A stretch of 64,000 nt of DNA from Candidatus Woesebacteria bacterium. GTDB lineage: Bacteria > Patescibacteriota > Microgenomatia > UBA8517. The stretch lies in NCBI GenBank assembly GCA_016432525.1, contig CP066693.1:547650-611649 (forward strand). Direction: 5' to 3'. A program made the translations under genes and the position numbers. Shown piece after piece: positions 1 through 49,523 of the stretch. Below the pieces are notes generated by a model. It saw only the letters and a program-made list of their open reading frames with translations. It was not told where the DNA came from and did no database searches. Each line of letters begins with the position of its first letter. Within the stretch, counting starts at the first letter, position 1.

Positions 1-1
1 C

Positions 2-1723: not shown

Positions 1724-1726
1724 ATC

Positions 1727-2770: not shown

Positions 2771-5700
2771 ATCAATAATTTTTACTTTAATCTATACGAT
2801 ATTGGGTTTAATAGGCCTATTATTTTTGTCTAAGTTTTGGTTACCTAATGGTTTTACAATAGCTGGCCATGATTCAGGATTATCTCTAGATTCTAAACAA
2901 TTTTTACTTTCCAGGTTGTTTGCTTGGAATCCCAACATAGGTTTTGGTGTAGATAATTCCTTTTTATTCGGAAGTCTCACCTTGCATTTTGTAGATTATT
3001 TATCTTCTTCAATTAGCGGAAATATTTTTGCCGGAAATTGGTTAAATATCTTTTTCTGGCTAGGGTTAATATTTATCTCCGCGGTATTCTTTGCCAACCA
3101 CTTTAAAAACACTTTTGGAGAATATTTTGTTTTTATTTTCCCTCCACTTGTTATTTTTAATTTCTACCTTTTCCAATCGATATTTATTTTAGAACGAGCA
3201 AAATACAGTATATTAATTGGAATATTATTTTTTGTACCCATCCTTCTCAAATTTCTAAATAAAAAAATTTCTCTGTCACTAGCCTCAATAATTAGTGCCT
3301 TTATATTTTTTATCTTCAATGGAGGAAGTCTTCTTGGACTCTCTCTTTTTGGTAGCTTATTTGTAATTATCGGATGCATATTCATTTTCAATCTCGCTTC
3401 AGACATAAAAACCAGGAATTTTTCTCAGACAATTCGTTATGTCGTATTTTTATTGTTAACTGCAATAATCTTTGTTTTATTAAATAGCTATCAAATTTTT
3501 CCTTTTCTCCACGAAAGTCGTAGTCAAAGCTATTTTGATGCCCTTGGAGGAGCAGGAACACTTCAAAGCATCGATTGGGTTGATTACATTAGCAAGAACA
3601 CATCTCTCTTAAGTTTGCTTCGATTAGAAGGAGTACCAAGCTGGTATTCTGATTCCATAACCGCAAACCCCGAGCACCCTTACGCCTCGTTTTATTTAGA
3701 CAACGATTCTCAAATTCTTGTAAGTTTTATTTTTCCAGTTTTAGCAATATCTTGTTTTGTTCTTTACAAAAGTCATAAACAAAAAAAATTATTGTCCCTT
3801 TTTGGTTTAATTGTAATTACTTCAGCTTTTCTCTCAAGTGGAACCCATCCTCCTCTTGGTTCAATTTACACATTTTTGTATAAACACTTACCTGGTTTTT
3901 TTATTTTCAGAAATCCGTATTACAAATTTGCAGGTGGATATTTAATTGGGATGTCAGTACTTATTGCAGGAGCTTTCTCCTTCATAATTACTAAAATAAA
4001 CAAAAAGTTTATATGTCTTTTTTTAAGTTTCTTAATAATCTGTGGATGGATTACCTATCACTACAAACTACTTTTGCCTGATCAGGTTTTCACTTGGAAA
4101 ACAAATTTCACAACTAAGGTAAATATTCCAAGTTATGTTTTTGATTTTTACAAGTGGAACAACTCAGAAAACTTAAAAAATGGAAAAATCCTCCTACTCC
4201 CAAAGCTTAACGATCGATACTTTGCAGACAGTTATGTCTGGAAATATTGGAGTCTTTCTCCGTTAACATACACTCTAGCTACAGTTCCTGGGTTAATTAA
4301 CGAGGCAGATTTAAATGGAGGGGAAATGGCTTGGGTAAACAAAATGTATTCCGCAATCGACTCATCAGATGCCGAAGAAATAAATCTACTAGCTTCAAAA
4401 CTTAACATACGTTATCTTTTACTAAGAAACGATACAGGTAGTTCAGAAGGCAATCAAAAAATACAAAAAACACTTGATAATCTAGCAGGAATCACAAGTT
4501 ATAAAAAATTCGGAGAATGGAGTTTATATCGCGCTGAAAACGTTAACTCAAAAATTATAGATATTTCCCAATCAATCACACTAACATCCAATGAGGGAGC
4601 ATATACTTCCCGTGAATTTGCGCCAAACGAAACAGTAATTACACAAGAAGGTTCTGATGTTGAAAAAACGCTGTCTCCTTTCGCAAACAAAAAAATAAGA
4701 ACATATTTCTGCGACTCTTGTCTACTTGAACAGGTTAATAATGATCAATCTTTACCTCCAACTAGAGTATTGCCAAATTCGCCACTTTATTTTTTGAAAG
4801 ATAGAAATGATCAAAATACAATTAATCAATCTTCAGATGATTCAAGTAAAATCATCAATTATTTAATACTTGCTTTCAGAAAAACTGCTGAAGTTAAATC
4901 AATGGCTGCTATGAACATAGAGGACAGATATCTAAATATAGGAATGCAAAAAATTAACGAATATCTTGCCAACAGCCTTGCGCTTTTAAATAAGCATCCC
5001 GAATTATCAACAAATTATTTAATGGCTAAACAAACTCTCAACACTACCCTTCCACTCTTAAAAGAACTGCAAAAATTTGTAAAAACCCGCGAGTTTAGTC
5101 AAAACCAAGGCAAAATCGGCCAGCTTGTTTACACTGAAATAAACCTTCTCAATAATCTTAATGATTATTATAAACCAATTTATCGTGATATAGATTACTT
5201 AAAAAACAATAAAACATATGAGTTAGGTAAGGAAACTGAATTATATTTGGATATGAACAGTTTAAGTACAGATAAAAATGGAAAAATTCACAAACCCACT
5301 ACAATTTATTACAAAACTGCCAATTCCGAAGAAAAAATTACATTACAAAATACAGACAGTAGGTGGCAAAAAATTAACATGCCAAATAATATGGCAGATA
5401 CTGCAATCCTTACTTTACAGTTCGATCAGCCAGACATGTTTGTACAAGGAAAAAGTGGAATTCATTCTTTTCCTAGTGGAAACCATGGTTGTTCAGAAGG
5501 GAAAATCTATAATTTTAATTCAGACAAGACATATGAAATAAAAATTTTAGTAAACGATAAAGCTCAGCAACTAAATTTATTTTTTCAAAATTCAGGAAGC
5601 AATGAACTAAAAAGAAATGTTGATATCTACCCTATAGAAATCAGTCAACCCTTTATTTATATATATCATCCTGACCACGAAGATAACGATCCAACAGTTT

Positions 5701-6200
5701 ACATTTGTAGTCAAGATAGAGATTTACCCATTATTGGTGCAATATCAATCTACGAACTTACCTCACCTAGGATCCAAGCTATGGAAACAACAGTTGGTTC
5801 ACTTTTCTCATCTAATTCTAAAATCTCCTACCAAATACTAGATAAAACCAAATACTTAATTAACGTAGATGGAAATGGTTACGCTTTTATTACATTCGCG
5901 CAACGCTTTAGCCAGTTCTGGAAACTTTACAAGATTGATAGTAATTTTAATCTTAGCGACAAATTAGCTTGGATAAAAAATTGGACTACTCAAAAACAAA
6001 ATACCTCACATTTTATAGTAAACGGTTTTGAAAACGGTTGGCTCATCAATTCTAATGATCAAAAAACAACATGGGTTTTGGAATATGTTCCTCAAGAATT
6101 TTTCTTTTTAGGTTCTTTAGTTACAATCTTCTCTATACTCGCATTCTTTTTATTTGGCGTTTTCCTTTTAGTAAAAGAATATAAACATGAAAAAGTATAA
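2760..6200 (+). CDS. Large polytopic membrane protein, GT-C-like glycosyltransferase candidate (1146 aa) with big extracytoplasmic domain and C-terminal TM anchor
   Basis: Roughly 12 or more predicted TM helices in the first ~450 aa, a long soluble region, and a final hydrophobic helix. Start overlaps the upstream GT2 stop (atgaaaaaTAA). Architecture resembles YfhO/AftD-like GT-C enzymes. Family not verifiable by eye. Confidence 0.45.
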   Translation: MKNKSIIFTLIYTILGLIGLLFLSKFWLPNGFTIAGHDSGLSLDSKQFLLSRLFAWNPNIGFGVDNSFLFGSLTLHFVDYLSSSISGNIFAGNWLNIFFWLGLIFISAVFFANHFKNTFGEYFVFIFPPLVIFNFYLFQSIFILERAKYSILIGILFFVPILLKFLNKKISLSLASIISAFIFFIFNGGSLLGLSLFGSLFVIIGCIFIFNLASDIKTRNFSQTIRYVVFLLLTAIIFVLLNSYQIFPFLHESRSQSYFDALGGAGTLQSIDWVDYISKNTSLLSLLRLEGVPSWYSDSITANPEHPYASFYLDNDSQILVSFIFPVLAISCFVLYKSHKQKKLLSLFGLIVITSAFLSSGTHPPLGSIYTFLYKHLPGFFIFRNPYYKFAGGYLIGMSVLIAGAFSFIITKINKKFICLFLSFLIICGWITYHYKLLLPDQVFTWKTNFTTKVNIPSYVFDFYKWNNSENLKNGKILLLPKLNDRYFADSYVWKYWSLSPLTYTLATVPGLINEADLNGGEMAWVNKMYSAIDSSDAEEINLLASKLNIRYLLLRNDTGSSEGNQKIQKTLDNLAGITSYKKFGEWSLYRAENVNSKIIDISQSITLTSNEGAYTSREFAPNETVITQEGSDVEKTLSPFANKKIRTYFCDSCLLEQVNNDQSLPPTRVLPNSPLYFLKDRNDQNTINQSSDDSSKIINYLILAFRKTAEVKSMAAMNIEDRYLNIGMQKINEYLANSLALLNKHPELSTNYLMAKQTLNTTLPLLKELQKFVKTREFSQNQGKIGQLVYTEINLLNNLNDYYKPIYRDIDYLKNNKTYELGKETELYLDMNSLSTDKNGKIHKPTTIYYKTANSEEKITLQNTDSRWQKINMPNNMADTAILTLQFDQPDMFVQGKSGIHSFPSGNHGCSEGKIYNFNSDKTYEIKILVNDKAQQLNLFFQNSGSNELKRNVDIYPIEISQPFIYIYHPDHEDNDPTVYICSQDRDLPIIGAISIYELTSPRIQAMETTVGSLFSSNSKISYQILDKTKYLINVDGNGYAFITFAQRFSQFWKLYKIDSNFNLSDKLAWIKNWTTQKQNTSHFIVNGFENGWLINSNDQKTTWVLEYVPQEFFFLGSLVTIFSILAFFLFGVFLLVKEYKHEKV

Positions 6201-6546
6201 AACTGATCAGATCGAAATTGCTATTTATCGCTGGATTATCCGAAAAAGGGTAAAGATAATTCTAAGTCTTATTGCAATTGCGATAATATATCTCTTTTCT
6301 ATATTGCCTTATTTCAATATTTTAATAAGCAAAGAGATGGTTTATTTGATAATTACAATAATAGTTATATTAATTTTTGGTTTAAAGTCACAAACAATAT
6401 TCAAAATAACGGTTTTATTATTATTTCTTACTTTTTTTCTAGTTTTTATAAAACGTGATTATTTAGCAGAATTGGTTGGGGATGTAGTGTTTGTTCTTTT
6501 TGCACTCGGAATTTTTATGCAAATTTTTAAAAATAATGAAAAATAA
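6187..6546 (+). CDS. Small 4-TM membrane protein (possible GtrA-like lipid-linked sugar translocase accessory)
   Basis: 119 aa, four hydrophobic segments, embedded between GT-C-like genes. Assignment to the GtrA family is speculative. Confidence 0.3.
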   Translation: MKKYKTDQIEIAIYRWIIRKRVKIILSLIAIAIIYLFSILPYFNILISKEMVYLIITIIVILIFGLKSQTIFKITVLLLFLTFFLVFIKRDYLAELVGDVVFVLFALGIFMQIFKNNEK

Positions 6547-9022
6547 ATATTTTTGGCTAATTTGCTCAGTTAGTCTTTTTTTAGTAGTTTTAGCTTCATA
6601 CGGTTTTATTTTAAATTTATTTTTTTGGAGAGACGACTACGCACTTTTATATCAATTAAAACAAGGTGGTTTATTTGATTGGCCTTACCAAGCAATTACT
6701 CTAATATATTATCCTTTTTATATTTTCTTCAAAGCCAATCCAGTTTATTATTTTCTAATTTCATTTTTACTTTATTTTGCGTTTTGTTTTCTTTTAGTAA
6801 AATTTGTTCTGTATTTCACGAAAGATAAATTTACTTCTTACCTCTCAGGGCTAATTCTTGCAACAGGTTACATAGGATTAGAAATTATGTATATGGTTGG
6901 CACATCCATGTCTGGTTTAATATATATACTACCCAGCATCTTTATAATTTTCCTATACGAAGAAACTCTTAGAACCAACAAAAAAGCAAAACACATTCTT
7001 CCTTTCAGCTTGTATCTAGTTCTATTATTCCTTTTTCCTCATCGAGCACACTCACTTTTTGCAATCATTTTCTTGACGGATCTGTTCTTCTCTAAGATCA
7101 AAACACCTATTTTAAGCATTAAACGTTTCAAAACTACATTTTTGAGAACAAGTCCTTATCTCATAACCACCGCCATCGCTTTTATTTCTTTGCCTCGATT
7201 TTTTACACCTCAAGCTTCTTCCTCATCTTCATTGCAAGTGATTACTAGTTTTATTAAAAACTTTAACTTAAATTATATAAAATTTTTTTTTGCAGATTTT
7301 ACAAGTTTTTTTATTCCCGACCGTTTTCATCTTTCTCTCACTCAATCTGCTATTTTCGGTTTTTTTTCATTAATAGTAGGTTTAATTTTGATAAAATTAC
7401 CATCAGATAAAAAAACAAAAAATTTTTTGCAATTCTCATTTCTTGTTTGGATAGCAAGTTTTGTTAGTTACTATATAGCTACTCCCGACATAGTATTTTA
7501 CTCAACTCAAAGGTATTTACTTTTCTCATATCCATTTTTAATTCCAATTATTGCTTACTTTTTAAAATATTTGATTTTTGAGAAAAAAAATCTGTCTCTA
7601 AAAATAATTGGGTCGTTACTACTTATATTGCTAATATTTTTTCACTTGAGAGAAACTTTTCTTTACAAAAAAGATATTGTGAAAAGAGCAGAGGCAACAA
7701 CCAACTTTTTTAGTGATCTTCAAAAAGAAGTTCCAGAAATTCACAGAAAAACTATATTCTATTTTGATACAGTTTCAGATCCCGCAACTGAAGATATATT
7801 TGGAGATATCCTAAGAGTGGGTTTTTACCCAACAGAAGCTTCTTTAGCAAGTTATTATGGTGTCAAAATGTCAGACATAAAGATTGCAGATAACTACGAT
7901 GATTATATTAAAGAAAAAAATAATCTTTCAGATTCATACATGTTTTTTTATGACATTTCAAAAAAATTGATAAAAATTACCCCAACAAAAACAAAGCCTC
8001 AAAAATTGCAACTTAATTTTGCCAAGAAACCAATAAGCCAAAAATCCAATATTCTAATCACTCAAGATAAAAGCACCAGCTCAAATAATCTCATTAATTT
8101 AAAAATGGATAATTTTCCACTTTTTGGTCGTCTCTCAATCAATCTAAACTTAACAGCGCAAGATTTAATATCTGAAATTAAAAAATTTCCTTATAAGGAC
8201 GAATCATCGAGTGTTCCAGACAATCTACCAATAAAAATGATTCACGAAAAAAATTATCTCAATACTTTACTTTCTTATATTCAAGATAGAGAAAAATTTA
8301 GAAACCTTGTCCATTTATCATCCAGTAAATACGTTGAAGGCAAAGATCCTAAAAATGCAATAGATGGCAATCTTGATACAGAATGGGAAGCTGACAAAAG
8401 AGACTGGCTAGATACTCAAACAGCATCTCTAGAATTTCAATTTGATAATCTTTTCCTTCTGTCGCAAATAAGATTTATTACTTCACACCCAAGTAGACTA
8501 CCCATCGAATATGAATATTATTATTTTAATGAAAAAGCAGACAGATGGGAGTTATTTTATAAATCTAAAAAAATGAATTATTTAAATAATGTTTATATAA
8601 TAGATTCATTTACTCCGATCAGATCTAAAAAGTTCAAAATGGTTATAACAAAAACGCTAACAGGTGACTTTCCAGGTATATCCGAAATCGAATTACTACC
8701 CAATTCTAATAATGTCGATTCTCGTTTGGCAAATTTCATTATCAACAACCCAATGGCTGATATACAAAGTAAGGATGAGGCAAACATCATTCTCTCTTCC
8801 ATAAAAGAAAATATTAAGCTTTATATTTATCCCATATCAGACAAATATCTAGTTAAAAACGAAGCCGGAAGGATAGAAGTACCTATTTTCCTGGATGGTA
8901 AACCCCACAATTACCACATATCTTTACCACAAGGAGGAACAGTTTTGAAAGCTCTTATACTACAACTTCCTAATATTCCCATAAAAGTAAGTGTCAATTC
9001 AATAAATATTCAAACAGAATAG
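6536..9022 (+). CDS. Polytopic membrane protein with C-terminal F5/8 type C (discoidin) domain
   Basis: The ORF track starts at 6491, but the Met at 6536 gives the canonical ATGAAAAATAA overlap with the upstream stop. N-terminal multi-TM region. C-terminal discoidin-like segment (KDPKNAIDGNLDTEWEADKRDWLDTQTASLEFQFDNLFLLSQIRF). Confidence 0.55.
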   Translation: MKNKYFWLICSVSLFLVVLASYGFILNLFFWRDDYALLYQLKQGGLFDWPYQAITLIYYPFYIFFKANPVYYFLISFLLYFAFCFLLVKFVLYFTKDKFTSYLSGLILATGYIGLEIMYMVGTSMSGLIYILPSIFIIFLYEETLRTNKKAKHILPFSLYLVLLFLFPHRAHSLFAIIFLTDLFFSKIKTPILSIKRFKTTFLRTSPYLITTAIAFISLPRFFTPQASSSSSLQVITSFIKNFNLNYIKFFFADFTSFFIPDRFHLSLTQSAIFGFFSLIVGLILIKLPSDKKTKNFLQFSFLVWIASFVSYYIATPDIVFYSTQRYLLFSYPFLIPIIAYFLKYLIFEKKNLSLKIIGSLLLILLIFFHLRETFLYKKDIVKRAEATTNFFSDLQKEVPEIHRKTIFYFDTVSDPATEDIFGDILRVGFYPTEASLASYYGVKMSDIKIADNYDDYIKEKNNLSDSYMFFYDISKKLIKITPTKTKPQKLQLNFAKKPISQKSNILITQDKSTSSNNLINLKMDNFPLFGRLSINLNLTAQDLISEIKKFPYKDESSSVPDNLPIKMIHEKNYLNTLLSYIQDREKFRNLVHLSSSKYVEGKDPKNAIDGNLDTEWEADKRDWLDTQTASLEFQFDNLFLLSQIRFITSHPSRLPIEYEYYYFNEKADRWELFYKSKKMNYLNNVYIIDSFTPIRSKKFKMVITKTLTGDFPGISEIELLPNSNNVDSRLANFIINNPMADIQSKDEANIILSSIKENIKLYIYPISDKYLVKNEAGRIEVPIFLDGKPHNYHISLPQGGTVLKALILQLPNIPIKVSVNSINIQTE

Positions 9023-9029
9023 ATTCTTA

Positions 9030-10118
9030 TTATCTTATTATGTCTGCGTAAGTTTTTTGATCTTTACCGGTTCGAGTAATGTAATGCCAATCTGTACACT
9101 TGGCACAGGGAGAGTCGGTAGGAATAGTTTGCGAAAGATGATTTTTTCTGATCTCTTGCATCTTGGGAGAATTCCACAATTCCTCAACTTTTCCATCTTC
9201 TGGAAACATTCCAATGTCAAATTCTTGTCTGTCCCATCCATGAGGGCACCATGTTACTCTTATTTGTCCATCTTCATTGCCAACAGCCAAACTTACTCTC
9301 AAGAATGGAAAATGACAGGGCCATCTTTTTAAATTTCCCATTTCAGTTATAACACCATCTACTATTTTTACTTCATCAACATTTTCTTGACCAGTTAAAC
9401 CCGCGTTTGAATTAAGTGGCCGCATAGAAACGCTGTCTACTCCAAGTTTTGCAGCCAATTTTACAAATTCATCTACAATGCCTTCAGTTTCTGGTCTCAA
9501 AATCATATTCATCATAATTTTAGTACCCACTTTTCTGCCGTCTTTCTTCATTAGTTCTCTCCGATTAACTAAGTTCGATATGTTTTTTATTACAGTCTGA
9601 AAATAATTCGTGCCGCTTTGCGATTTTCTAACAATTGAGTAAAGATCTTCTCTTGGTGAATCTACACTTACATTAATCATAGATATATTGGCTTGTAAAA
9701 GCTGTAATGCCATTTGATCATCCAAAAGAATACCATTAGTTGTCATTCCAATTCGAAAATTTCTATCAGTCGAATATTTAACTATATCAACAATTCTGGG
9801 ATGCATAAGAGGCTCTCCGTTTGCTGTTAATTGCAAAGCAGGCTTAGTAGGCCAAGTAGCAATCTCATCCAATGCTCTAAATAAAACTCTCGCGTCCATA
9901 AAAGGAGGTCTTACTTCTTCACCTCGATGTAAAGCTTTTGTGCGCGCAAGCATACGCTCAGGGAGAGGGCAGTGGGGACATGCCAAGTTACATATATTTT
10001 CAACGACATCTAAATTCACCGATCTGGGAAGTCCCTGCCAATGTCTAATTTCCAACTCTGTTGGAGGTTCGCCAAGCGTAGTTCTTAACACCTCAATTCG
10101 CGAATTTTCAGCGCTCAT
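9030..10118 (-). CDS. Radical SAM enzyme with C-terminal SPASM/twitch-like Cys cluster
   Basis: CNLACPHCP (CxxxCxxC) near the N-terminus. C-terminal cysteines (CPHGW...CAKCTDWHY). G+C visibly higher than neighbours. Last gene of the minus-strand Arn-like operon. Confidence 0.75.
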   Translation of the reverse strand: MSAENSRIEVLRTTLGEPPTELEIRHWQGLPRSVNLDVVENICNLACPHCPLPERMLARTKALHRGEEVRPPFMDARVLFRALDEIATWPTKPALQLTANGEPLMHPRIVDIVKYSTDRNFRIGMTTNGILLDDQMALQLLQANISMINVSVDSPREDLYSIVRKSQSGTNYFQTVIKNISNLVNRRELMKKDGRKVGTKIMMNMILRPETEGIVDEFVKLAAKLGVDSVSMRPLNSNAGLTGQENVDEVKIVDGVITEMGNLKRWPCHFPFLRVSLAVGNEDGQIRVTWCPHGWDRQEFDIGMFPEDGKVEELWNSPKMQEIRKNHLSQTIPTDSPCAKCTDWHYITRTGKDQKTYADIIR

Positions 10119-10134
10119 TGTTATTTATTGTACA

Positions 10135-11205
10135 TTAGCTCTTAGCCTTGTCAAGGATGCTTAAAGGCAAAACAAAATGATAAGAATATTCTTTTTTAAT
10201 TCTTTCTAAACCCAAATTGATTAATCTTTGCATTTCTTTTGACTTAAAAACTTTTGTAAAAAAGAAATAAGGCTTTTCGCTGCTTCCCCATTGAACCTTA
10301 AAATTATAAGGTCCACCCCCTCTAGGTTTAGAAGATTGCCAATTAAAATATTTAAATTTATGCATTTTGGACCACTTCATTACTTGAAAAATTAATAAAT
10401 ACATTGCCCCATTTTTATAAGACTCTAAGCTTCCTGAGTAAATATAAGTATCAATTACACGTTTGGAATAAAGAGTAAGGCAGCCGGCAACTACCTGTTC
10501 GTTTTTATCTATTATAAAGAAAAATCTACCAAAATTATTCTGAACTAAAAATTTAATCGAATTTAAAAGTAGTTTTCTAGGTAGAGGAGTAACTGATAAT
10601 TCCTTGTGTCTTAGGCGATGTATTTTATACCAAGAATTAAAGTAATAAGTTGAGGTACTAGCAATAACCTTAAATCCATTATTTTTCGCTTTTTTAAGCA
10701 TTCTTTTTAAGTTATTTCGAAAGTGAGAATTGTTTCTTGGAATTGCTTGAAGGTCAATGTACAAAGTATAGTTTTCTAAATCGTAAGTTGGTTTCCAAAT
10801 CTTCCGATACAAATTAACATCAGGCCAAAAAGGTGAAGATATCAAAGTCGCAGCAATAGCATTTTCTTTTTTTGCAAATGTTGCTAGAGAACTGAATATT
10901 CTAGTATAGATCTCTACTTTTTTTTTCTTATAACCATTTTTTATAATGATTCCCCCCAAAGGTCCAGAGTATGGTACAGAATTAATAATATTTCCAAATT
11001 TTGACTTAAAAACAAAAAGAGGAAGTGCCCCTATTGTTTTATTTTCGTGAAACACTAAAATTACCCAAAATTTATCTTTTCCAAAACTCTCAATTACATG
11101 CGCCCAAAAAATACTCTGTTGAAAATAATAATTATCATTTTCTTCCAAAAACTTTTGATAAAGCTTAATATCTTTTGATCTTGACGATACGATAAGCGTT
11201 TTCAT
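10135..11205 (-). CDS. FemAB-family / Acetyltransf_6 (BioF2-like) acyl- or aminoacyl-transferase
   Basis: About 350 aa, GNAT-like duplicated fold pattern. Overlaps the DegT stop by 4 nt (translational coupling). This family commonly N-acylates amino sugars in glycan loci. Confidence 0.5.
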   Translation of the reverse strand: MKTLIVSSRSKDIKLYQKFLEENDNYYFQQSIFWAHVIESFGKDKFWVILVFHENKTIGALPLFVFKSKFGNIINSVPYSGPLGGIIIKNGYKKKKVEIYTRIFSSLATFAKKENAIAATLISSPFWPDVNLYRKIWKPTYDLENYTLYIDLQAIPRNNSHFRNNLKRMLKKAKNNGFKVIASTSTYYFNSWYKIHRLRHKELSVTPLPRKLLLNSIKFLVQNNFGRFFFIIDKNEQVVAGCLTLYSKRVIDTYIYSGSLESYKNGAMYLLIFQVMKWSKMHKFKYFNWQSSKPRGGGPYNFKVQWGSSEKPYFFFTKVFKSKEMQRLINLGLERIKKEYSYHFVLPLSILDKAKS

Positions 11206-12305
11206 TTAATAAGCTTAAAAAGCCCTTGGTTCAAAGTCCTAATTACATGTCTTTGATCTTTTGCTGTAAGTGAAGGATATATTGGAAGCAACATACTTGC
11301 TTTTTCTAAATACTCGCTATTTTCGAATTTAGCTTTGTAATTTTTATAGTATGGGTGTTTGTGTATGGGATAAATCCCCTCTTTTGCGATAATACCATTT
11401 TCCTTTAGAATCTTGATTAATTCATCTCGAATTTTTAAGTATTTTGGTTTCAGGCTAACAGGATAAGATTGCCAATTGGGTTTAGAAAAAGATTGTAATT
11501 TCACAGTATCTAAATAAGGGTTGTTTTTAAGGCTTTTTGTATAAAAACCAGAAATACTGTTTCTTTTGCTTAAAAATTTTTTTAAATTATTAAGTTGAAC
11601 TAAACCAATAGCCGACTGAATATCGGTAATTCTTAAATTAAAACCTAATTCAGTCAAAAGGTCGACATTATTTGTTCTTATTAATCCATGGTTTCGTAAA
11701 GATTTAATTCTTTCGATGAGTTTTCTGTTAGATGAAACAATCATTCCCCCTTCAGCAGTGGTTATAATCTTTCTGGGGTGGAAACTAAAACAAACAAGCT
11801 TTCCTTTAGATCCAATATATGAGCCTTTATATTTTGATCCCAACGCGCAAGCAGCATCTTCTATAACCGCAATTTTATTTTTTCTTGCAAATGCATAAAT
11901 TTGATCAAGATCACAAGGAAATCCAAATTGATGGACAACAATAATGGCTTTTGTTTTTTGACTAATTTTTTTTTGAATGTTTTTAAGGCTCATATTACTA
12001 TCTGCTTCTACGTCACAAAAAACTGGTTTTGCTTGAGTTAGATTTATTACATACGAAGAAGCTATAAAAGAATAAGATGGAGTAATTACTTCATCGTTTT
12101 TCTTAAGATCCAAAGTTTTAAGTGCTAAATATAAAGCTGCAGTGCCTGAAGATACAGCAACAGCATACTTAGCGTTTATGAATTTAGCAAATTCACTTTC
12201 AAATTTTTCAGTTTCAGGGCCGTTCATAATCCAACCAGAAGTAATCACTTTTTTTATTGCGTCAATTTCCTTTTTGCCTAGGTCAGGTTTTGAAATTGGT
12301 ATCAT
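11202..12305 (-). CDS. DegT/DnrJ/EryC1/StrS family PLP-dependent sugar aminotransferase (ArnB-like)
   Basis: MIPISKPDLGKKEIDAIKKVITSGWIMNGPETEKFESEFAKFINAKYAVAVSSGTAALYLAL is the classic DegT N-terminus; a presumed PLP-binding lysine lies downstream. Confidence 0.85.
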   Translation of the reverse strand: MIPISKPDLGKKEIDAIKKVITSGWIMNGPETEKFESEFAKFINAKYAVAVSSGTAALYLALKTLDLKKNDEVITPSYSFIASSYVINLTQAKPVFCDVEADSNMSLKNIQKKISQKTKAIIVVHQFGFPCDLDQIYAFARKNKIAVIEDAACALGSKYKGSYIGSKGKLVCFSFHPRKIITTAEGGMIVSSNRKLIERIKSLRNHGLIRTNNVDLLTELGFNLRITDIQSAIGLVQLNNLKKFLSKRNSISGFYTKSLKNNPYLDTVKLQSFSKPNWQSYPVSLKPKYLKIRDELIKILKENGIIAKEGIYPIHKHPYYKNYKAKFENSEYLEKASMLLPIYPSLTAKDQRHVIRTLNQGLFKLIK

Positions 12306-12311
12306 CTCAAA

Positions 12312-13286
12312 TTAAAGAGGTTCCTTGATATTATTGTCCCTATACCAAGCTATAGACTTTAAAAGCCCACTTTCTAAATCAACTTTAGGTTGATATCTCA
12401 AAATTTCTTCAGCTTTTTGAACATTAGGAACTCGCAAATCTATATCAACACCCTTATGTGGTACAAAAGATATTTTAGATTTAGAATTGGAAAGCCTGAT
12501 TATTATTTTTGCCAAGGAAAGTATTGTAACAGTACCTTCTGGATTACCAACATTAAAAATTTCTCCTAAAGCTTTCTTTTCCTGGGCTGCAGTAAGTGTT
12601 GCGCTCACCAAATCATCAATATAGCACCAAGCCCTGATCTGGTTTCCATTTCCAGTTACCTCGATTGGTAAATTTGAAAGAGCCTTTCTAATAAATATCT
12701 GGATTGCACCTTCACCTACTTGCCCAGGACCGTAAATATTAAAAGGCCTAATCGATGTCAAAGGTAATTTAAATTCTTGTGAATAAGAAAATACCAAACT
12801 TTCACCTGCAAGTTTACTAATTCCATAACACCACCTCATCTGTTTAAGTTCCCCTTGTGCAGTAGGTGCGTCCTCTTTTACACCAAAAACAGTTGGGCCA
12901 TATACCTCACTGGTAGAAAAATATATAAACCTTTCAATAGGTAGATCTTTTACAGATTGTAATACATTATATGTACCAACAGCATTCACCTCCATAGTTT
13001 TTGTTGGTTGACGATAATAATCAGTTACCCCAGCCATAGCAGCTAAATGAAATACTATCTGAGGTTTAAAAAAAGAAGTTACTCCTCTTAGTAAATTAGC
13101 ATCCAAAATGTCACCTTTGACAAAATTAACATCAGAAATACCATTTTCTTTTGGAAAATATTTCATAGCATCTCTACGCAAATTATCATAGACAACAATA
13201 TCATTATTTGCTGCCAGCTTTCTAACTAAAGTTGAACCTATAAAACCTGCTCCTCCTGTTATTAGAATTCTCTTATTTTTAATCAT
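12312..13286 (-). CDS. NAD-dependent sugar epimerase/dehydratase (UDP-glucuronate decarboxylase / ArnA C-terminal domain-like)
   Basis: Rossmann motif ILITGGAGFIGS; YxxxK catalytic pair (YGISK). Confidence 0.85.
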   Translation of the reverse strand: MIKNKRILITGGAGFIGSTLVRKLAANNDIVVYDNLRRDAMKYFPKENGISDVNFVKGDILDANLLRGVTSFFKPQIVFHLAAMAGVTDYYRQPTKTMEVNAVGTYNVLQSVKDLPIERFIYFSTSEVYGPTVFGVKEDAPTAQGELKQMRWCYGISKLAGESLVFSYSQEFKLPLTSIRPFNIYGPGQVGEGAIQIFIRKALSNLPIEVTGNGNQIRAWCYIDDLVSATLTAAQEKKALGEIFNVGNPEGTVTILSLAKIIIRLSNSKSKISFVPHKGVDIDLRVPNVQKAEEILRYQPKVDLESGLLKSIAWYRDNNIKEPL

Positions 13287-13364
13287 CTTCTAAGATCTAC
13301 CTAAATCGAGATAGATAATTGCACATTTTTTTAATTTGGTCTAGAGTCAGTTCAGTGCGCTAGC

Positions 13365-14066
13365 CTATAAAAGCTGCTGTCTAAGAGAGATGAGATCTCT
13401 TAAATAGCGTAGATATCTTATTGGATTATTGTATTTTGACGACCCAGCAGTTCTCCTGTGAAATACGGCTTTCTGCTGTTTAAATTTAAATCCTTTTCTG
13501 TACAATTTAATAAGAAGTTCAGCTGGGGCAAAGGTATCTTCTGAGTGGATATGTATATTTTTTAAAACATTTTTTCTGTATAGCTGTACAAAATGAAAGT
13601 CATTTATTGGAACGTTAAAGAAAATTTTTACTAGAGTATAACTTACTAAAGAGGTAATTTTTCTGAAAAAAGGATTTGCAGATCTGTCTTTTCTAGTAAA
13701 AACTACAACATCGCTCGTTTCCATCTTGTTTGTCACTTTATTTAAATCAGATAAATCAAATGGTTGATCAGCCGAATTATGAAAAACCCATTTATATTTA
13801 GCGATTTTAAAGCCATCGAGTATAGATTTTCCAACACCTAAATTCTTTTTATGGGTGAGTATAACTATATGTTTCTTCTCTTTTTTGAGTTTTTGCAATA
13901 TGAAAGCAGTTTTATCTTCAGACCCATCATCAACTACAATAATCTCATATTTTTTGCATAGTTTTTGTAACTCTTTTGTATAAATTCCAATTGTTTCTTT
14001 GATTACCTCTTCCTCATTAAGTACTGGAACAATTAAAGATAGGGATTCGATTCTCTTCGCTTTCAT
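13365..14066 (-). CDS. GT2 polyprenyl-phosphate sugar synthase (DPM1/ArnC/GtrB-like)
   Basis: LSLIVPVLNEEEVI...YEIIVVDDGSEDKT GT-A signature. Overlaps the stop of the upstream GT-C gene by 4 nt. Confidence 0.75.
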   Translation of the reverse strand: MKAKRIESLSLIVPVLNEEEVIKETIGIYTKELQKLCKKYEIIVVDDGSEDKTAFILQKLKKEKKHIVILTHKKNLGVGKSILDGFKIAKYKWVFHNSADQPFDLSDLNKVTNKMETSDVVVFTRKDRSANPFFRKITSLVSYTLVKIFFNVPINDFHFVQLYRKNVLKNIHIHSEDTFAPAELLIKLYRKGFKFKQQKAVFHRRTAGSSKYNNPIRYLRYLRDLISLRQQLL

Positions 14067-15940
14067 AATTTAGAAAAAAAACTACTAATAATTATAAATA
14101 ATATAGTAGAAAACATAATTAGCAAACCAATAATAAAACTTTCTGGCCTGTATATAAGATCAATATATCTTCCTTTGCCATTAGACTTTACTTGAATTGT
14201 TCCTACAACAGTTTCGTTAACAGGTATTTTCCCGCCATCCATATAAGCGCTCCACCCAGAATTGTAAACTTCAGGAATATTGATTTGGTTATCAGAAGTG
14301 TCAAATCTAATCTTATTTGGTGAATAAATTAAATAATTCGGATTTGTAAAAAGTTCGTTTTTATAGATTAAATAACCATCAATTTTATTAACAAAAGAAA
14401 GATTTTTTCTATCAATTTCGTAAGGAGAAATAACGTATTTGACTCTGAAAGTCGTTAAAGATGGAGGATAAGGTCTAAACTTTTCGTAATTATAAATTTC
14501 ATAAGGCGGGATAGCCAAGGTATACTTATTTCTCCAAAAAGCTTGATAAAGTTGCTGAGAATAATCATAATAATTTTTTTGTTGTAATGTTCCATATCCA
14601 TCCACGGATTGGATATTATAAATGGCCAATTTTTTTTGAGATAAACACTTTGTAGTGCACAAAACTCTAAAATTATCTTTATCCTCTTTTAAAAATAGAT
14701 AAATCCGGTTCGAAACTAAATCATAATTTGAATCAATCGGTTTCATCATTTTTATCCATGAGGTAATTAAAAGCTCACCACATGTAATTAAAGCCAAAAA
14801 AATTACTAAAACTTTATATTTAGTATGACAATACATCTCGAAAGCAAATCCCGCCAAAAACAAAACTAAAAAAATAACAATAAACCAGAATCTTGTAGAT
14901 ACTCTCAGTAGCAAATACCAATTTTGGGATAGTAATGATTGATAAATAGGCGAAACGTTGTTCAAGCTTATTGGAATTACTATCAAAATAGAAAAACCGA
15001 TTAAAATTTTTAGTTTTCTTCTAATTTGCAAAAAACCAAAAAAGGCGAGTATTAAAGTACCCAACCCCAAAGCAATACATTTTTCAGTATCAAGATTCCA
15101 TAAAAATCTATAACCTAAAAAAATAGGGGACACACTCGAAATAAAAAAATCCCTTAATCCTGACCATTTTGGATAAACATCTGGATTTGTGATCAAAAGA
15201 AGTCTTGTAGTTTCATGGCTCCATTCAAGTTGTGGGAGAAACGCTATTGAAATAAGACCAAACATAAAACCAAAGGCTACTAAAAAGTAGATTATTTTTT
15301 TTCTGAAATCTACTCTTTTGGTCAAGATTAGAAAAAGGTAAACAAAAAAAACACATATTACTGATATCGAAAAAATTAAAACGTGAGTAAAAAAAATAGC
15401 TGCCAAACTTATTGCCAAAAATATAGACTTCTTAATTGTAGGTTTAGAAAAAAGAAGGACTGTAAATAAAAATACCCATGGAAGCCAACCGTAAGAATAA
15501 ATAAGCCCTAAATGTCCTGCTTCTACATATGCAGAAAGTTTAGGAGAAAAAACATAAAATGCTGCCAAAACAAGACTTGTATTCTCACTAAATTTAAACC
15601 CTTTCTTAGATAGTAGATAAATTCCCAAAGTAGCCCAAAATATATGTAAAAAAACGCTTACTAAAAAGGCAGTATCTAAATTCAAAAAAAGAAAAATAAA
15701 ATTAGGAATATAAAAAATCGGCGATTGGGGATCTGTAATCAACGGCATCCCAGAAAAAAATAAATTATTCCAAAGTGGAATTGAGTGATTGATCAAAAGT
15801 TGTGATTTAACAAAAAAAATTGTGGGCCAAAAAAATTCCTCTAAGTCATTTCCTCTTGATACCAAAATAGAGGGATACATTATAAAAGGAAGACACGTTA
15901 AAACCGCTAAAAAAAACAAAATCATTAATGATTTTTTCAT
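14063..15940 (-). CDS. GT-C fold membrane glycosyltransferase (YfhO/ArnT-like)
   Basis: 625 aa with about 13 TM helices and a C-terminal periplasmic domain. N-terminal region resembles YfhO-family loop motifs. Paired with an ArnC/GtrB-like GT2. Confidence 0.5.
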   Translation of the reverse strand: MKKSLMILFFLAVLTCLPFIMYPSILVSRGNDLEEFFWPTIFFVKSQLLINHSIPLWNNLFFSGMPLITDPQSPIFYIPNFIFLFLNLDTAFLVSVFLHIFWATLGIYLLSKKGFKFSENTSLVLAAFYVFSPKLSAYVEAGHLGLIYSYGWLPWVFLFTVLLFSKPTIKKSIFLAISLAAIFFTHVLIFSISVICVFFVYLFLILTKRVDFRKKIIYFLVAFGFMFGLISIAFLPQLEWSHETTRLLLITNPDVYPKWSGLRDFFISSVSPIFLGYRFLWNLDTEKCIALGLGTLILAFFGFLQIRRKLKILIGFSILIVIPISLNNVSPIYQSLLSQNWYLLLRVSTRFWFIVIFLVLFLAGFAFEMYCHTKYKVLVIFLALITCGELLITSWIKMMKPIDSNYDLVSNRIYLFLKEDKDNFRVLCTTKCLSQKKLAIYNIQSVDGYGTLQQKNYYDYSQQLYQAFWRNKYTLAIPPYEIYNYEKFRPYPPSLTTFRVKYVISPYEIDRKNLSFVNKIDGYLIYKNELFTNPNYLIYSPNKIRFDTSDNQINIPEVYNSGWSAYMDGGKIPVNETVVGTIQVKSNGKGRYIDLIYRPESFIIGLLIMFSTILFIIISSFFSKL

Positions 15941-16119
15941 TTAATATCTTTGGGCATAGATTTTAGTATAATCTAGAAAAAATATGAACAGCAGAATTTT
16001 GATTCTAATATCTTTTTTTGGATTTCTAATCATTTCATTTATGCTACTCACCAATCATTGGGGTATCGCAATAAGAATTATAAATTATTTGTTTTTCTTA
16101 CTATTATTTATAGTTTTAT

Positions 16120-18762
16120 ATGAATTTTTTAAAACAAAATAAAAAACTTATTTTTTTTCTAATTCTTCCCATCGTTCTAATTTTTAGAAATTTTTTGATT
16201 AAAGGTCCAACAATATGGGGAGACGCCCCCTATTTTTTCAAAGAAGGTTTAGCTGAGCTCACTTTTCCCATGTCTGCACAAATCTCTAGGGGAAACCCAT
16301 TTGGCGGAGTTAATAATTTTTTATGGATATACCCGTTAATGTATATTTATGGTTTCTTAGGAAAGTACCTTAATCTCGGAAACGACATAATTATAAGAAT
16401 TCTTTTCTATCTTCCCTCTATTGTGTTTTCTGTTATAGGTTCAATCCTGCTTGCAAAAAAATTCAAATTCTCAAAAAAAGTTCAGTTCTTTACAGCTCTA
16501 ATCTACTTAATAAACACATACTATCTTTTACTGGTTGATGGCGGACAAGTGGGTATAGTTTTATCTTATGGAATCTTTCCTTTGGCTACGGTTTGTTTTT
16601 TAAATTTTCTAGAACTACCATCTGTTTTTACTTTCCTAATCTCACTATTAACACTTCAGCTTCTGACAATTGCTGATTTCAGAATAGCAGCTATCTGTAT
16701 TTTTTTTAGTTTTCTGATTGACAGCAGAAAAAACTTTAAATCGTTAATTTATTTATTAGTCTCCCTAGTAGCTATCAATAGTTATTGGCTTATTCCAGCT
16801 TTAAAAATATCTCAACCAGAAGTAAGTAGTGCATCTTCCTTGCAATTAGTATCCCTCTTAAATCCATTTTTTTTATTTCAACCACATTGGCCTGGAAATA
16901 TTTTTGGTAAAGTAAACCCTCCAAATTTTTACTTTGTAGGCCTTCCTTTTCTAATTTTTTTACCATTATTGCTAAAAAAAGCTAACAAAACTCTTTTAAA
17001 ATTTTATCTAATTCTTCTTTTGTTTATTTTTTTATCAAAAGGTGAGACTTATCCCGCAGGATTCTTCTACAGATTTTTTATAAACAAAATTCCATTTGGA
17101 TCAGTATTTCGAGATTCCACTAAATTTTTTATTCCTCTCGTTTTAATTTCAGGAATTTTTATTGGGAAAAGTGTAGAAATTATAAAATCCAAACTCTTTG
17201 CATTTTTGGTTTTTATTTACATATTATTTCTGATTAATCCGGTTTTAATAGGAAAGATGAACGGCATATTAGGAAAAATTCCAAATACTTCAAATTTTAG
17301 CAATTTATACGAATATGTTTCTCAAAAAGAGGGATTTTTCAGAACTGCATACTTTCCAGAGCAAAGTCCGTTTACATTTCATACGGAAGAAAAACAGGCT
17401 CTAAACGCAAAAGATCTTACAAATTTTAGACCTTTCGCCTCTATAAATGTCGGTACCGGCGATCGATTTAATTTTATAAATAATAACGAATATCTGGATT
17501 GGTTTGATATTTTGGGAATTAAGTATTTAATATTTTCAGGGAACCCTCGTCAACCAGTTTTGGATAAATCAGATCAAAAAGATTGGGATAGATTGCTAAA
17601 TCTTGTTAAGAATAATAAAAATCTAGAAAAAATAAATATTGGCACCAATCTTCCAATTTTTCAGACAAAATCATCCAAACAGCATTTGTATGGTGTTTCA
17701 AAAATGTATTTAGTAATTGGTCCTGATGATATTTACCAAAGGATTAGAAAAGTAAACAAAAACTTTTTAATTGGAAATCAAGGCTTTTTGTTTGTAGAAG
17801 ACGGAAAACTAAATCTAGAAGAACTAACAAATCTTCCCGATAAATCTCTAAATTTGATTTTCGACGACAAAGGTATAACGGATTTAAAAATGGGATTCTT
17901 GAAAAGTTCATTTGTGAATCCAGACATGTCCACAACATCACAATGGGCAATAAGAAGACCTGAGGATTATTTAAACTGGAAATACGAACTCCTCATAAAT
18001 AAGATAGATACCCACGATTTTGACTATAATCTCGGGGTCGCTTTTTCTTCTCAACCATCAGAAGAAATTAAATTTAACGTAAGTACCTCAAGTAGCGGAG
18101 AGTATTATCTATTAGTTAGAAATATGTCAGCAGAGAATTCTCAAGATCTGAAATGGGAAATTGAAAATTATCAAGGAAGTATAAAAAATACTAAAAGCAA
18201 AAATTTTCAATGGTCAGAAGTTGGCCCTCTCAAATTAAAGGCTGGGCAATATACATTAACTTTTAAAAATACAAAAGGGTTTCAAGTTCTAAATACTTTC
18301 GTATTAGTTAATAAAAAAGATTTAGAAGAAGCGTTGTCAAAAGCAAATAATTTAGTTAATCGTTTTGAAAAAATAGATCTCACCAAAACAGATATCGATA
18401 AAATAAATAATATCAACACTCTTTTCCAAAGTTCCTGGGTAAAAATAAATTTTACAAAAATAGACAGCGAAAATTACAGAATTGAAAATCCTAAAAATAA
18501 TTTTTGGATTATTTTTTCAGATAAATTTGAGAAAAATTGGAAGGTTAAAACAATGAGCGACTATATAGACCCTTTACCTGTCTACTCCATGCTCAACGCC
18601 TATTATATAAATAATACAAAATCAGAACTTAATTTAATCTACACTGGTCAAAAATATGTCGATCAAGGAATATATTTATCAATTGTTTCCTCTCTAATTA
18701 TTTTAGTGATTCTAGGTTTTATTTTTCTAAGAAACAAAAAAAGATTTAAGAAGGCAAAATAA
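16120..18762 (+). CDS. Large polytopic membrane protein, GT-C-like (880 aa), C-terminal TM anchor
   Basis: N-terminal multi-TM region, large soluble domain, terminal hydrophobic helix (YLSIVSSLIILVILGFIFL). Convergent with a GT2 gene. Confidence 0.45.
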   Translation: MNFLKQNKKLIFFLILPIVLIFRNFLIKGPTIWGDAPYFFKEGLAELTFPMSAQISRGNPFGGVNNFLWIYPLMYIYGFLGKYLNLGNDIIIRILFYLPSIVFSVIGSILLAKKFKFSKKVQFFTALIYLINTYYLLLVDGGQVGIVLSYGIFPLATVCFLNFLELPSVFTFLISLLTLQLLTIADFRIAAICIFFSFLIDSRKNFKSLIYLLVSLVAINSYWLIPALKISQPEVSSASSLQLVSLLNPFFLFQPHWPGNIFGKVNPPNFYFVGLPFLIFLPLLLKKANKTLLKFYLILLLFIFLSKGETYPAGFFYRFFINKIPFGSVFRDSTKFFIPLVLISGIFIGKSVEIIKSKLFAFLVFIYILFLINPVLIGKMNGILGKIPNTSNFSNLYEYVSQKEGFFRTAYFPEQSPFTFHTEEKQALNAKDLTNFRPFASINVGTGDRFNFINNNEYLDWFDILGIKYLIFSGNPRQPVLDKSDQKDWDRLLNLVKNNKNLEKINIGTNLPIFQTKSSKQHLYGVSKMYLVIGPDDIYQRIRKVNKNFLIGNQGFLFVEDGKLNLEELTNLPDKSLNLIFDDKGITDLKMGFLKSSFVNPDMSTTSQWAIRRPEDYLNWKYELLINKIDTHDFDYNLGVAFSSQPSEEIKFNVSTSSSGEYYLLVRNMSAENSQDLKWEIENYQGSIKNTKSKNFQWSEVGPLKLKAGQYTLTFKNTKGFQVLNTFVLVNKKDLEEALSKANNLVNRFEKIDLTKTDIDKINNINTLFQSSWVKINFTKIDSENYRIENPKNNFWIIFSDKFEKNWKVKTMSDYIDPLPVYSMLNAYYINNTKSELNLIYTGQKYVDQGIYLSIVSSLIILVILGFIFLRNKKRFKKAK

Positions 18763-49426: not shown

Positions 49427-49523
49427 TCTGCGCCGTTTCCATCAAGCTACAGGAGGAAAGGGGAATAAGGGCGGTAACGAAAACCAGTACAATGAGACGC
49501 ACAATAATACTTTTTTGCGACAT
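49338..49523 (-). CDS. Possible small lipoprotein (61 aa)
   Basis: MSQKSIIVRLIVLVFVTALIPLSSC has a signal peptide with a lipobox-like LSSC. Overlaps the 3' end of the plus-strand Cys-rich ORF, so one of the two may be spurious. Confidence 0.25.
   Translation of the reverse strand: MSQKSIIVRLIVLVFVTALIPLSSCSLMETAQTTAIDRTPPSVWTDIFCSHTSKTRSNRQA

Follow-up and report, generated by a model that had tools for sequence, protein, structure and literature searches.

The six-gene operon considered here lies in a window of 64,000 nucleotides (the whole stretch of DNA that was analysed) from a groundwater bacterium with a very small genome, a Candidatus Woesebacteria bacterium (assembly GCA_016432525.1, contig CP066693.1, positions 547,650 to 611,649). 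In the list of open reading frames (ORFs) of the window, six co-directional minus-strand ORFs span 9030 to 15940 to the base, exactly the limits within which an earlier note on this DNA had placed six minus-strand genes of a pathway resembling Arn, the system that attaches 4-amino-4-deoxy-L-arabinose (Ara4N) to lipid A. This Arn-like reading is largely supported, with corrections, and the cassette is concluded to be a genuine, conserved and uncharacterised variant of lipid-carrier glycosylation, for which the chemistry of a Fem-type transferase and of a radical S-adenosylmethionine (SAM) enzyme is predicted here. The six proteins are exact matches to GenBank entries QQG47088.1-QQG47093.1 of a Candidatus Woesebacteria metagenome-assembled genome, a member of the Microgenomates within the candidate phyla radiation (CPR), on a contig of 916,571 bp. 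Their NCBI names are generic only, and the GT-C and Fem-like proteins are labelled 'hypothetical'. Starting from the first gene of the operon, the genes are:

14063-15940, minus strand: 625-aa GT-C protein, operon gene 1; candidate extracytoplasmic transferase
13365-14066, minus strand: 233-aa family 2 glycosyltransferase (GT2); short ArnC/GtrB/DPM1-like catalytic domain
12312-13286, minus strand: 324-aa short-chain dehydrogenase/reductase (SDR) of the extended type with a UXS/ArnA-type active-site signature
11202-12305, minus strand: 367-aa sugar aminotransferase of the DegT/ArnB/PseC class, dependent on pyridoxal phosphate (PLP)
10135-11205, minus strand: 356-aa Fem-type double-GNAT (Acetyltransf_6) transferase
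9030-10118, minus strand: 362-aa radical SAM enzyme, predicted to have one auxiliary Fe-S site

The junctions between these genes measure, in order, -4, +78, +6, -4 and +16 nt. The description of the genes as mostly translationally coupled was therefore a slight overstatement: it holds for the two ATGA overlaps, one of which is the 4 nt shared by the GT2 and GT-C genes while the other couples the Fem-like gene to the DegT gene, and these are accompanied by two very short gaps and one gap of 78 nt.

Proposed amino sugar synthesis and loading on the lipid carrier

The SDR matches PF01370 (E 6e-59) and carries the motifs GGAGFIGS (residues 11-18), STSEVYG (124-130) and YGISK (154-158). Its STSEVYG stretch aligns with the STSEVYG of human UXS, and the Asp of the dehydratase TDE motif is not present. 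That Asp is needed by 4,6-dehydratases, and the T-S-E triplet is typical of decarboxylases of the UXS/ArnA type; it is this motif that suggests a role as UDP-glucuronate (UDP-GlcA) decarboxylase. The proposed likeness to the C-terminal domain of ArnA holds for the PF01370 family and for the STSEVYG and YxxxK signatures, with the decarboxylase role being motif-based and with a score against the ArnA model (NF005998) of 103 bits for a cut-off of 777; the U4kpxs model (NF008872) gives 113 bits for a cut-off of 294. The best solved relative is PDB entry 8vr2 (about 55% identity, 306 bits). The aminotransferase matches PF01041 (E 1e-105, 354 bits) and displays the PLP motif SFHPRK with the Schiff-base Lys at position 179. 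Its relatives are ArnB, PseC and enzymes of the perosamine synthase type, and its top PDB matches are 8vr5, 8vr3 and ArnB (1mdo) at about 207 bits, so that the label 'ArnB-like' is apt as far as ArnB is among the best solved relatives and too specific as regards equivalogs, the protein remaining below the cut-offs for both PseC (TIGR03588, 318 bits versus 423.5) and ArnB (NF008658, 273 versus 631). No report on the function of 8vr2, 8vr3 or 8vr5 was found in the open-access literature.

The 233-aa GT2 matches PF00535 (E 3.8e-22). The NCBIfam models that align with it over its full length all describe polyprenyl-phosphate transferases (ArnC, PgfS, AglJ and the halo-archaeal Dol-P-hexose transferase), while most other GT2 models align to its N-terminal part only. 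Residues 3-226 align to positions 2-223 of ArnC, and the best seven PDB matches include ArnC three times, from three species, together with GtrB and DPMS, with scores of up to 69.7 bits for ArnC and 40 bits for GtrB. The assignment as an ArnC-like polyprenyl-phosphate sugar synthase is thus upheld by a full-length alignment that is best to ArnC and then to GtrB and DPMS. Short members of this clade lacking transmembrane (TM) helices do exist, since the NCBIfam PpgS model has 226 positions, and the protein also resembles the DPM1 type. From its sequence, the GT2 is predicted to be a short, peripheral member of the polyprenyl-phosphate sugar synthase clade.

The Fem-type transferase and the radical SAM enzyme

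The 356-aa protein had been described as a FemAB/Acetyltransf_6 protein, and it indeed scores above the cut-off of PF13480 (24.7 bits versus 22) and matches TIGR03019 of the FemAB family (E 1e-18). All 24 homologues examined match PF13480 and nine of them also match PF02388 (FemAB). A single-sequence search of the PDB with this protein found nothing; the family profile does find Weissella FemX (E 2e-6) and an aminoacyl-tRNA-dependent peptide synthase. In the alignment to FemX, the pair F304-K305 corresponds to F302, nearly invariant, and K303, invariant in the family, so that the Phe-Lys pair, whose K305 is the recognised catalytic residue of FemX, is kept. By remote homology to these enzymes, it is proposed that the protein could catalyse the aminoacyl-tRNA-dependent N-aminoacylation of a sugar amine. 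A precedent is provided by the Fem-like protein Orf11 of the BD-12 pathway, which glycylates an amino-sugar amine from Gly-tRNA (PMC12945691).

The last protein of the operon is a radical SAM enzyme (PF04055, E 6e-18, 66 bits for a cut-off of 29.5) with seven Cys in total, namely the CxxxCxxC motif C43/C47/C50 and a C-terminal set C268/C291/C338/C341, and all seven, including the four auxiliary Cys, are conserved across the family. A SPASM-type Cys cluster had been attributed to it. The radical SAM core and the auxiliary Cys stand, but the match to SPASM (PF13186, 20.6 bits) is below the cut-off of 21.5, and the presence of only four auxiliary Cys points to one Cys-ligated auxiliary cluster of the Twitch-like or abridged SPASM kind instead of a full two-cluster, 7-Cys SPASM domain. 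At the level of fold, the protein groups with BlsE, DesII, BtrN, anSME and SuiB and not with MoaA or QueE, and no equivalog-level match to these two housekeeping families was obtained; profile scores and fold comparison agree in this respect with the view that it is not a housekeeping enzyme of the MoaA/QueE type. The sugar- or cyclitol-modifying enzymes BlsE, DesII and BtrN stand at or near the top of the fold ranking, DesII being the top Foldseek match, with sequence identities of 14-18%. This ranking is not discriminating, as sugar-directed and peptide-directed chemistry cannot be separated by it, and the NCBIfam BlsE model gives 33 bits for a cut-off of 400. The family is also rare: among 1.84 billion proteins, only seven representatives reach E<1e-30.

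As for the reaction, radical C-methylation or epimerisation had been envisaged, and neither finds support. The lack of a free conserved Cys that could donate an H atom speaks against epimerase chemistry of the EpeE/NeoN type, and the lack of a B12-binding or HemN-like domain against methylase chemistry of class B or class C. BtrN and SpeY, Twitch enzymes with a single auxiliary cluster, are dehydrogenases. Given this precedent and the missing features of epimerases and methylases, dehydrogenation is the preferred prediction for the radical SAM enzyme.

Conservation of the cassette across phyla

An argument for a common pathway comes from gene linkage. The family profile of the Fem-like protein was searched against the GTDB species representatives, and the distinct loci with a close Fem homologue were counted (n=21). 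Full-length homologues, at about 30-33% identity, occur in Nitrospirota, Acidobacteriota, Omnitrophota, Myxococcota, Binatia and Gemmatimonadota, and further ones in Chloroflexota, Armatimonadota (Chthonomonadia), Xanthobacteraceae and 'Deltaproteobacteria'. A radical SAM gene of the same family lies within a few kb of the Fem homologue in 17 of the 21 loci, in at least eight lineages; the radical SAM homologues at these 17 loci score 156-550 bits in hidden Markov model searches, with all seven Cys aligned. Three of the four remaining loci are cut by the contig end beside the Fem gene, leaving L027 as the only one truly without the partner. DegT genes are found in nearly all of the loci and an ArnC-like short GT2 in 13. 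The Fem and radical SAM genes often overlap, and their strict pairing suggests consecutive steps. The comparison of gene neighbourhoods that the earlier note had proposed as a check therefore came out in its favour, and the linkage of the Fem/radical SAM pair with DegT and ArnC-like GT2 genes is strong evidence for one pathway. The cassette is present in CPR, Nitrospirota, Acidobacteriota, Omnitrophota, Myxococcota, Binatia, Armatimonadota and Alphaproteobacteria (including Xanthobacteraceae). The setting stressed earlier, a cell with no lipid A, cannot define the system, as the cassette also occurs in diderm phyla.

The composition of the cassette varies around this core. The Omnitrophota locus L020 contains Fem, radical SAM, GT2, SDR and DegT genes, a small ORF and a PMT_2 (ArnT-family) GT-C gene, which equals the content of the window. 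Across phyla, cassettes frequently include a GFO/IDH/MocA enzyme and a second DegT; two DegT genes flank the Fem and radical SAM genes in the non-CPR loci L015, L016, L017 and L024, and a single one is found in the window cassette, L020 and L021. Within the CPR (L002-L010), the closest homologues of the radical SAM and Fem-like genes invariably lie side by side, and the loci carry a GT2 of 233-243 aa together with either SDR and DegT (L002, L009) or GFO/IDH/MocA genes (L004-L007, L010). The active-site motif of the SDR also differs between lineages, with STSEVYG plus RWxYxxSK in the CPR only and SSSEVYG or SSASxYG elsewhere.

Several of the compared loci show features of their own. In Candidatus Microgenomates (L007, JACQJR010000001.1), positions 1-4702, directly upstream of the cassette, encode DegT, SDR and again DegT, along with a free-standing formyltransferase (Formyl_trans_N/C) and a fusion of hexapeptide and GT2 parts; this more canonical Arn-like set implies that N-formyl amino-sugar pathways also exist in the CPR. 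The genome with the closest homologue of the 625-aa protein (L011, GCA_964357785.1, 61% identity) has nearby, at 11604-12898, a DegT gene called as a pair of ORFs (220 and 223 aa), which points to a frameshifted pseudogene or else to a fault of the assembly, and the Fem and radical SAM genes are absent at this locus. Distant Fem-like genes (83-95 bits) occur in Bacteroidota (L030, L031, L034) in the arrangement SDR, DegT, 631-aa, Fem-like, 394-aa and 11-TM protein, with no radical SAM of the cassette family at these three loci; this may represent a related but distinct cassette for amino-sugar acylation.

Candidate membrane glycosyltransferases of the locus

The 625-aa protein encoded by the first gene begins with about 11 TM helices, continues with a soluble domain rich in beta structure and ends with a single TM helix. 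It scores 18.4 bits against the Pfam YfhO model (PF09586), over its last 60 residues only and for a cut-off of 28.5, and because of this sub-threshold match its classification as GT-C needed a structural test, which it passed. When its AlphaFold2 model (predicted local distance difference test, pLDDT, 91.7) was compared with the PDB by Foldseek, the best 28 matches were exclusively GT-C enzymes (E 1.8e-6 to 8e-2), including STT3, AftD, PglB, AglB, AftA, ALG9/12, ArnT and DPY19, with ArnT ranking only 23rd-24th. The YfhO model is matched by seven of 35 homologues (best E 1e-15), and no PMT_2 match was found for the 625-aa protein. Acidic residues following the first TM helix are conserved, D32 being nearly invariant and D70 invariant. 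Of the two halves of the initial 'ArnT/YfhO-like' description, the GT-C fold is retained, YfhO is kept as a likeness at the level of the family and ArnT is dropped: the protein is a GT-C enzyme, probably of the YfhO kind. Together with the alignment of the GT2 within the ArnC clade, its fold indicates that the two transferases do not belong to families unrelated to polyprenyl-phosphate sugar chemistry.

This family is abundant in the CPR, with more than 160 matches, and its gene order is conserved with respect to the divergent 880-aa/Wzx/GT2/methyltransferase block and not to the cassette. In L011-L013 the homologue keeps the divergent block (an 840-870-aa paralogue, Wzx, GT2 and methyltransferase) and is followed by other genes, and in the L007 genome more than 6 kb separate the family gene from the locus of the cassette. 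As the 625-aa GT-C stands apart from the cassette elsewhere, the window is best described as having a five-gene cassette seated between two conserved blocks, joint transcription of cassette and 625-aa gene being peculiar to this genome.

The features that flank the operon on both sides are the following:

6187-6546, plus strand: 119-aa small membrane protein, overlapping the start of the 843-aa gene
6491-9022, plus strand: 843-aa ORF, PMT_2-like with a discoidin module, convergent on the operon
15941-16119, no strand: divergent intergenic region of 179 bp between the operon and the 880-aa gene, presumed promoter region
16120-18762, plus strand: 880-aa membrane protein, paralogue of the 625-aa GT-C; context, not part of the cassette

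The 843-aa ORF probably starts at 6536, which would give a protein of 828 aa. At least seven TM helices fall within residues 1-390, and the extracytoplasmic domain at its C-terminus includes an F5/8 type C (discoidin) module, which is detected in all five members of its family (F5_F8_type_C, best E 1e-13). Its N-terminal region aligns with one of the PMT_2 proteins encoded in the window itself (hhalign probability 90.5%, E 1.4e-6), and the pair D48-D49, directly after the first TM helix, is invariant in the family. Homologues of this discoidin membrane protein are present in five of the six CPR cassette loci, with varying orientation, and lie next to the Fem/radical SAM pair in L003, L007 and L010. 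The 843-aa PMT_2-like protein is the CPR-conserved neighbour of the cassette, and it is a candidate for an alternative or additional transferase and the better candidate for an 'ArnT-family' enzyme. Single-sequence PDB searches with the 625-aa and 843-aa proteins found nothing, and hhalign showed no relationship between the two families. The 843-aa protein has a paralogue of its C-terminal half in the ORF of 558 aa that is cut by the window start (47-1723; hhalign E 4e-42).

The 119-aa protein has about four TM helices by hydropathy and is a possible membrane partner or flippase subunit; it has no Pfam or NCBIfam match and no detectable similarity to GtrA or to the DUF2304 protein of L013. On the other side of the operon, the 880-aa protein aligns with the TM region of the 625-aa GT-C (BLASTP, 28% over 199 aa, E 1e-9), and its gene is the first of the conserved block that also includes a Wzx-like flippase, a GT2 and a methyltransferase.

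The proposed pathway and its alternatives

What the analysis shows directly is how the genes are ordered, which domains and folds they encode, the motifs of catalysis and the linkage across phyla. Starting from this, it is moderately probable that the module performs surface glycosylation through a lipid carrier, of the 'three-component' Arn/Gtr type, with a tailored amino sugar. In the pathway proposed here, the SDR would first oxidise a nucleotide sugar at C4 to give a nucleoside diphosphate (NDP)-4-keto sugar, the decarboxylation of UDP-glucuronate being favoured by the STSEVYG motif, and the DegT enzyme would transaminate this compound to a 4-amino sugar. The Fem-type enzyme would then acylate the sugar amine with an amino acid from an aminoacyl-tRNA, the presumed donor, as a counterpart of the N-formylation in the Arn pathway. 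There, N-formylation by ArnA drives an unfavourable transamination and creates the form that ArnC recognises. In a fourth step, which on the presumed order follows acylation, the Twitch-like radical SAM enzyme would abstract an H atom on the sugar ring or on the aminoacyl side chain, most likely for a two-electron oxidation (dehydrogenation) of the BtrN/DesII/anSME type. The finished sugar would next be loaded on polyprenyl phosphate by the short ArnC-like GT2 at the inner face of the membrane and, after flipping, a GT-C enzyme, perhaps the 625-aa YfhO-like protein, the 843-aa PMT_2-like protein, which is equipped with a carbohydrate-binding module, or both, would transfer it to an acceptor presumably located in the wall or at the surface. 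Family, fold and motif evidence is the basis on which the first two and the last two steps are proposed, the substrates being assumed from it; for the acylation, the basis is remote homology and the conserved catalytic pair. The radical chemistry is the weakest part of the scheme.

A number of findings weigh against this reading. No protein of the operon reaches the NCBIfam equivalog cut-off for ArnA, ArnB or ArnC; the GT2 in particular has 78.9 bits for the 529-bit cut-off of the ArnC equivalog (NF007986), and with no predicted TM helix it is devoid of the two C-terminal ones of ArnC and GtrB. The SDR, taken over its whole sequence, scores equally against epimerases and UXS, and no UDP-glucose dehydrogenase (Ugd) was found among the window ORFs scanned. 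This SDR is moreover non-orthologous between lineages, being replaced in other cassettes by other SDRs or by GFO/IDH/MocA oxidoreductases, which implies that the sugar scaffold is not fixed. The 625-aa GT-C is encoded without the cassette in the three related genomes examined (L011-L013). The CPR locus L010 (contig SRR22387800_25567) has genes for GT2, GFO/IDH/MocA, radical SAM, NTP_transferase and Fem-like proteins and no DegT in 11.5 kb, a situation that is hard to reconcile with an amine-requiring Fem enzyme unless the aminotransferase is encoded elsewhere. Finally, some Acetyltransf_6 proteins may not use aminoacyl-tRNA.

These points leave room for a different fate of the sugar. The cassette could make a soluble, nucleotide-activated N-acyl amino sugar for a repeat unit that glycosyltransferases of the ordinary cytoplasmic kind would build on undecaprenyl pyrophosphate (Und-PP) and that Wzx/Wzy would handle, with the GT2 acting as a repeat-unit transferase and the GT-C proteins being unrelated to it. 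A Wzx-like flippase, a Wzy_C protein, a Bac_transf protein and many GT1/GT2 genes are indeed present in the surrounding island, and such a role would suit a GT2 that has no TM helix and remains far below the ArnC cut-off, as well as the conservation of the 625-aa GT-C without the cassette. It is nevertheless judged unlikely. Every full-length alignment of the GT2 is to a polyprenyl-phosphate transferase, ArnC is clearly the best PDB match, and the PpgS model attests to short TM-less members of the clade. Gene organization argues in the same sense, as the GT2 and GT-C genes overlap by 4 nt, a PMT_2 gene comes after the L020 cassette and 843-aa PMT_2-like genes come after the CPR cassettes.

The rank of DesII as top Foldseek match raises the question of a desosamine-like route (DesI/DesII), in which the radical SAM enzyme would deaminate or oxidise the DegT product to a keto-deoxy sugar, a second aminotransferase would install a new amine at a different carbon and the Fem-type enzyme would acylate a different amine. 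The substrate of DesII is the product of a DegT 4-aminotransferase, and two DegT genes do occur in many non-CPR cassettes (L015, L016, L017, L024). Against this, the fold ranking does not discriminate, the score against NCBIfam DesI is 181 bits for a cut-off of 650, the window cassette, L020 and L021 have one DegT each, and the window ORFs that were scanned include no second DegT. This route is accordingly held to be quite improbable. Even less credence is given to a specialised small-molecule pathway, similar to those for aminoglycosides or peptidyl-nucleosides, in place of envelope glycosylation. Although BlsE, DesII and BtrN, like the Fem-like proteins Orf11 and PacB, all come from antibiotic pathways, the cassette is situated inside a glycan-assembly island beside the dcw cell-division cluster, shows linkage with ArnC-like GT2 and GT-C genes in different phyla and belongs to a host genome of about 0.9 Mb. 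That the Fem-like protein is a peptidoglycan cross-bridge transferase standing beside sugar genes by chance is hardly credible at all, for even if its closest solved relatives are FemX enzymes acting on UDP-MurNAc-pentapeptide and the window also contains the dcw cluster, its gene lies more than 30 kb from the dcw genes, is translationally coupled to DegT and has the same linked partners, radical SAM and DegT, in 17/21 loci, diderm phyla included.

Comparison with known systems and implications

If the preferred lipid-carrier pathway is set beside the Arn system (PmrHFIJKLM, Ara4N on lipid A), both share an SDR with T-S-E and YxxxK motifs, a DegT aminotransferase, an N-acylation, an ArnC-like GT2 and a GT-C transferase. 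The cassette differs by having a Fem-type transferase in place of the formyltransferase domain and an extra radical SAM step; no ArnD-like deformylase and no ArnE/F were found for it, its GT2 is without TM helices, and the GT-C of the operon is YfhO-like and not ArnT (GT83). To our knowledge, CPR bacteria are not known to make lipid A. With the Gtr/CsbB-YfhO systems the cassette has in common a GT2 gene coupled to the gene of a YfhO-like GT-C, a small 4-TM protein nearby and an acceptor that would lie outside the membrane. However, those systems transfer plain Glc or GlcNAc from UDP-sugars, whereas four tailoring enzymes precede the GT2 here, and the small membrane protein, unlike a GtrA flippase, shows no detectable similarity to that family.

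The tailoring enzymes have their own parallels. FemX/FemABX and Orf11 share with the cassette protein the double-GNAT Acetyltransf_6/FemAB family and the Phe-Lys pair, and the acceptor of FemX is UDP-linked; the similarity is nonetheless remote (profile E 2e-6), and the context of the cassette is glycan assembly and not peptidoglycan or antibiotic synthesis. BtrN, DesII and BlsE, and also anSME, have in common with the radical SAM enzyme a partial TIM-barrel core followed by a C-terminal auxiliary-cluster domain. The first three work beside DegT-class aminotransferases (BtrS/R, DesI/DesV and BlsH, respectively). The cassette enzyme differs from them in constituting a distinct, rare family that is obligatorily paired with a Fem-like gene. 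No description of the combination of FemAB, radical SAM and DegT genes, with or without an ArnC-like GT2, was found in the open-access literature. The class of the locus, glycan biosynthesis, is an ordinary one; its tailoring pair is unusual and conserved and lends itself to experiments.

A wider proposal can be put forward tentatively, as a possibility short of a probable one: that the Fem-type transferase, Twitch-like radical SAM enzyme, DegT aminotransferase and ArnC-like GT2 define an undescribed and widespread envelope-modification pathway, in which a tRNA-derived amino acid would be placed on a lipid-carried amino sugar and radically tailored before export. Such a pathway would be a translation-coupled analogue of Ara4N, directed at wall polymers or surface proteins in the monoderm-like CPR and possibly at lipid A or lipopolysaccharide in diderms, and it would provide a new building block for surface glycans, namely an amino sugar that is aminoacylated, tailored by radical chemistry and delivered on a lipid carrier. 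It would also identify enzymes that place amino acids on sugar amines. As far as we know, the genes for many of the known N-aminoacyl sugars of O-antigens are unassigned. Aminoacyl-tRNA pools would in this way be tied to envelope chemistry beyond peptidoglycan and lipids. Because diderm phyla have the core as well, it could represent a charge-modifying system that has gone unrecognised, similar to Ara4N and of relevance to cationic-peptide resistance. For the CPR/Patescibacteria, whose episymbiotic lifestyle depends on surface contacts, the cassette offers a testable handle on an almost unknown cell surface.

Genomic surroundings of the operon

The operon is part of a glycan-assembly island of about 42 kb, with GT1/GT2 genes, three PMT_2 proteins, a Wzx-like flippase, a Wzy_C protein, a sugar-1-phosphate nucleotidyltransferase and an initiating Bac_transf, and the island is followed by the dcw cluster. 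The island (1-42000) is rich in polytopic GT-C-like proteins (558, 1146, 843, 625 and 880 aa, PMT_2 proteins of 452, 444 and 483 aa, and Wzy_C). All six operon genes resemble it in G+C content, overall and at third codon positions (GC3). A recent horizontal gain of the radical SAM gene alone was considered and rejected: its higher G+C of 0.385 derives from amino-acid composition and not from a bias at third positions, its GC3 being 0.284. Promoter and terminator scans of the region gave scores at or below chance and were uninformative on the operon boundaries. The best sigma-70-like match (TTGACA-16-TACAAT, 11/12) is located at 10154-10127 on the minus strand, inside the end of the Fem-like gene and just upstream of the radical SAM start, and could be an internal promoter candidate, although the scan overall was not above chance.

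Farther along the window, a stretch of about 4 kb (48200-52100) has a G+C content of 41-54%, where the genome has about 30%. It breaks up the dcw cluster, with the PBP/FtsI gene (46039-47739) on one side and mraY (53090-54142) on the other. No tRNA and no Rfam match, even at E 0.1, was found in it. Only short ORFs occupy it: one similar to response-regulator receivers (48644-49024) and one for a small Cys-rich protein (49025-49426), accompanied by proteins of 270 and 183 aa without assigned family and by a toxin-looking ORF of the RelE/HigB kind (52262-52633). The stretch looks like a foreign insertion.

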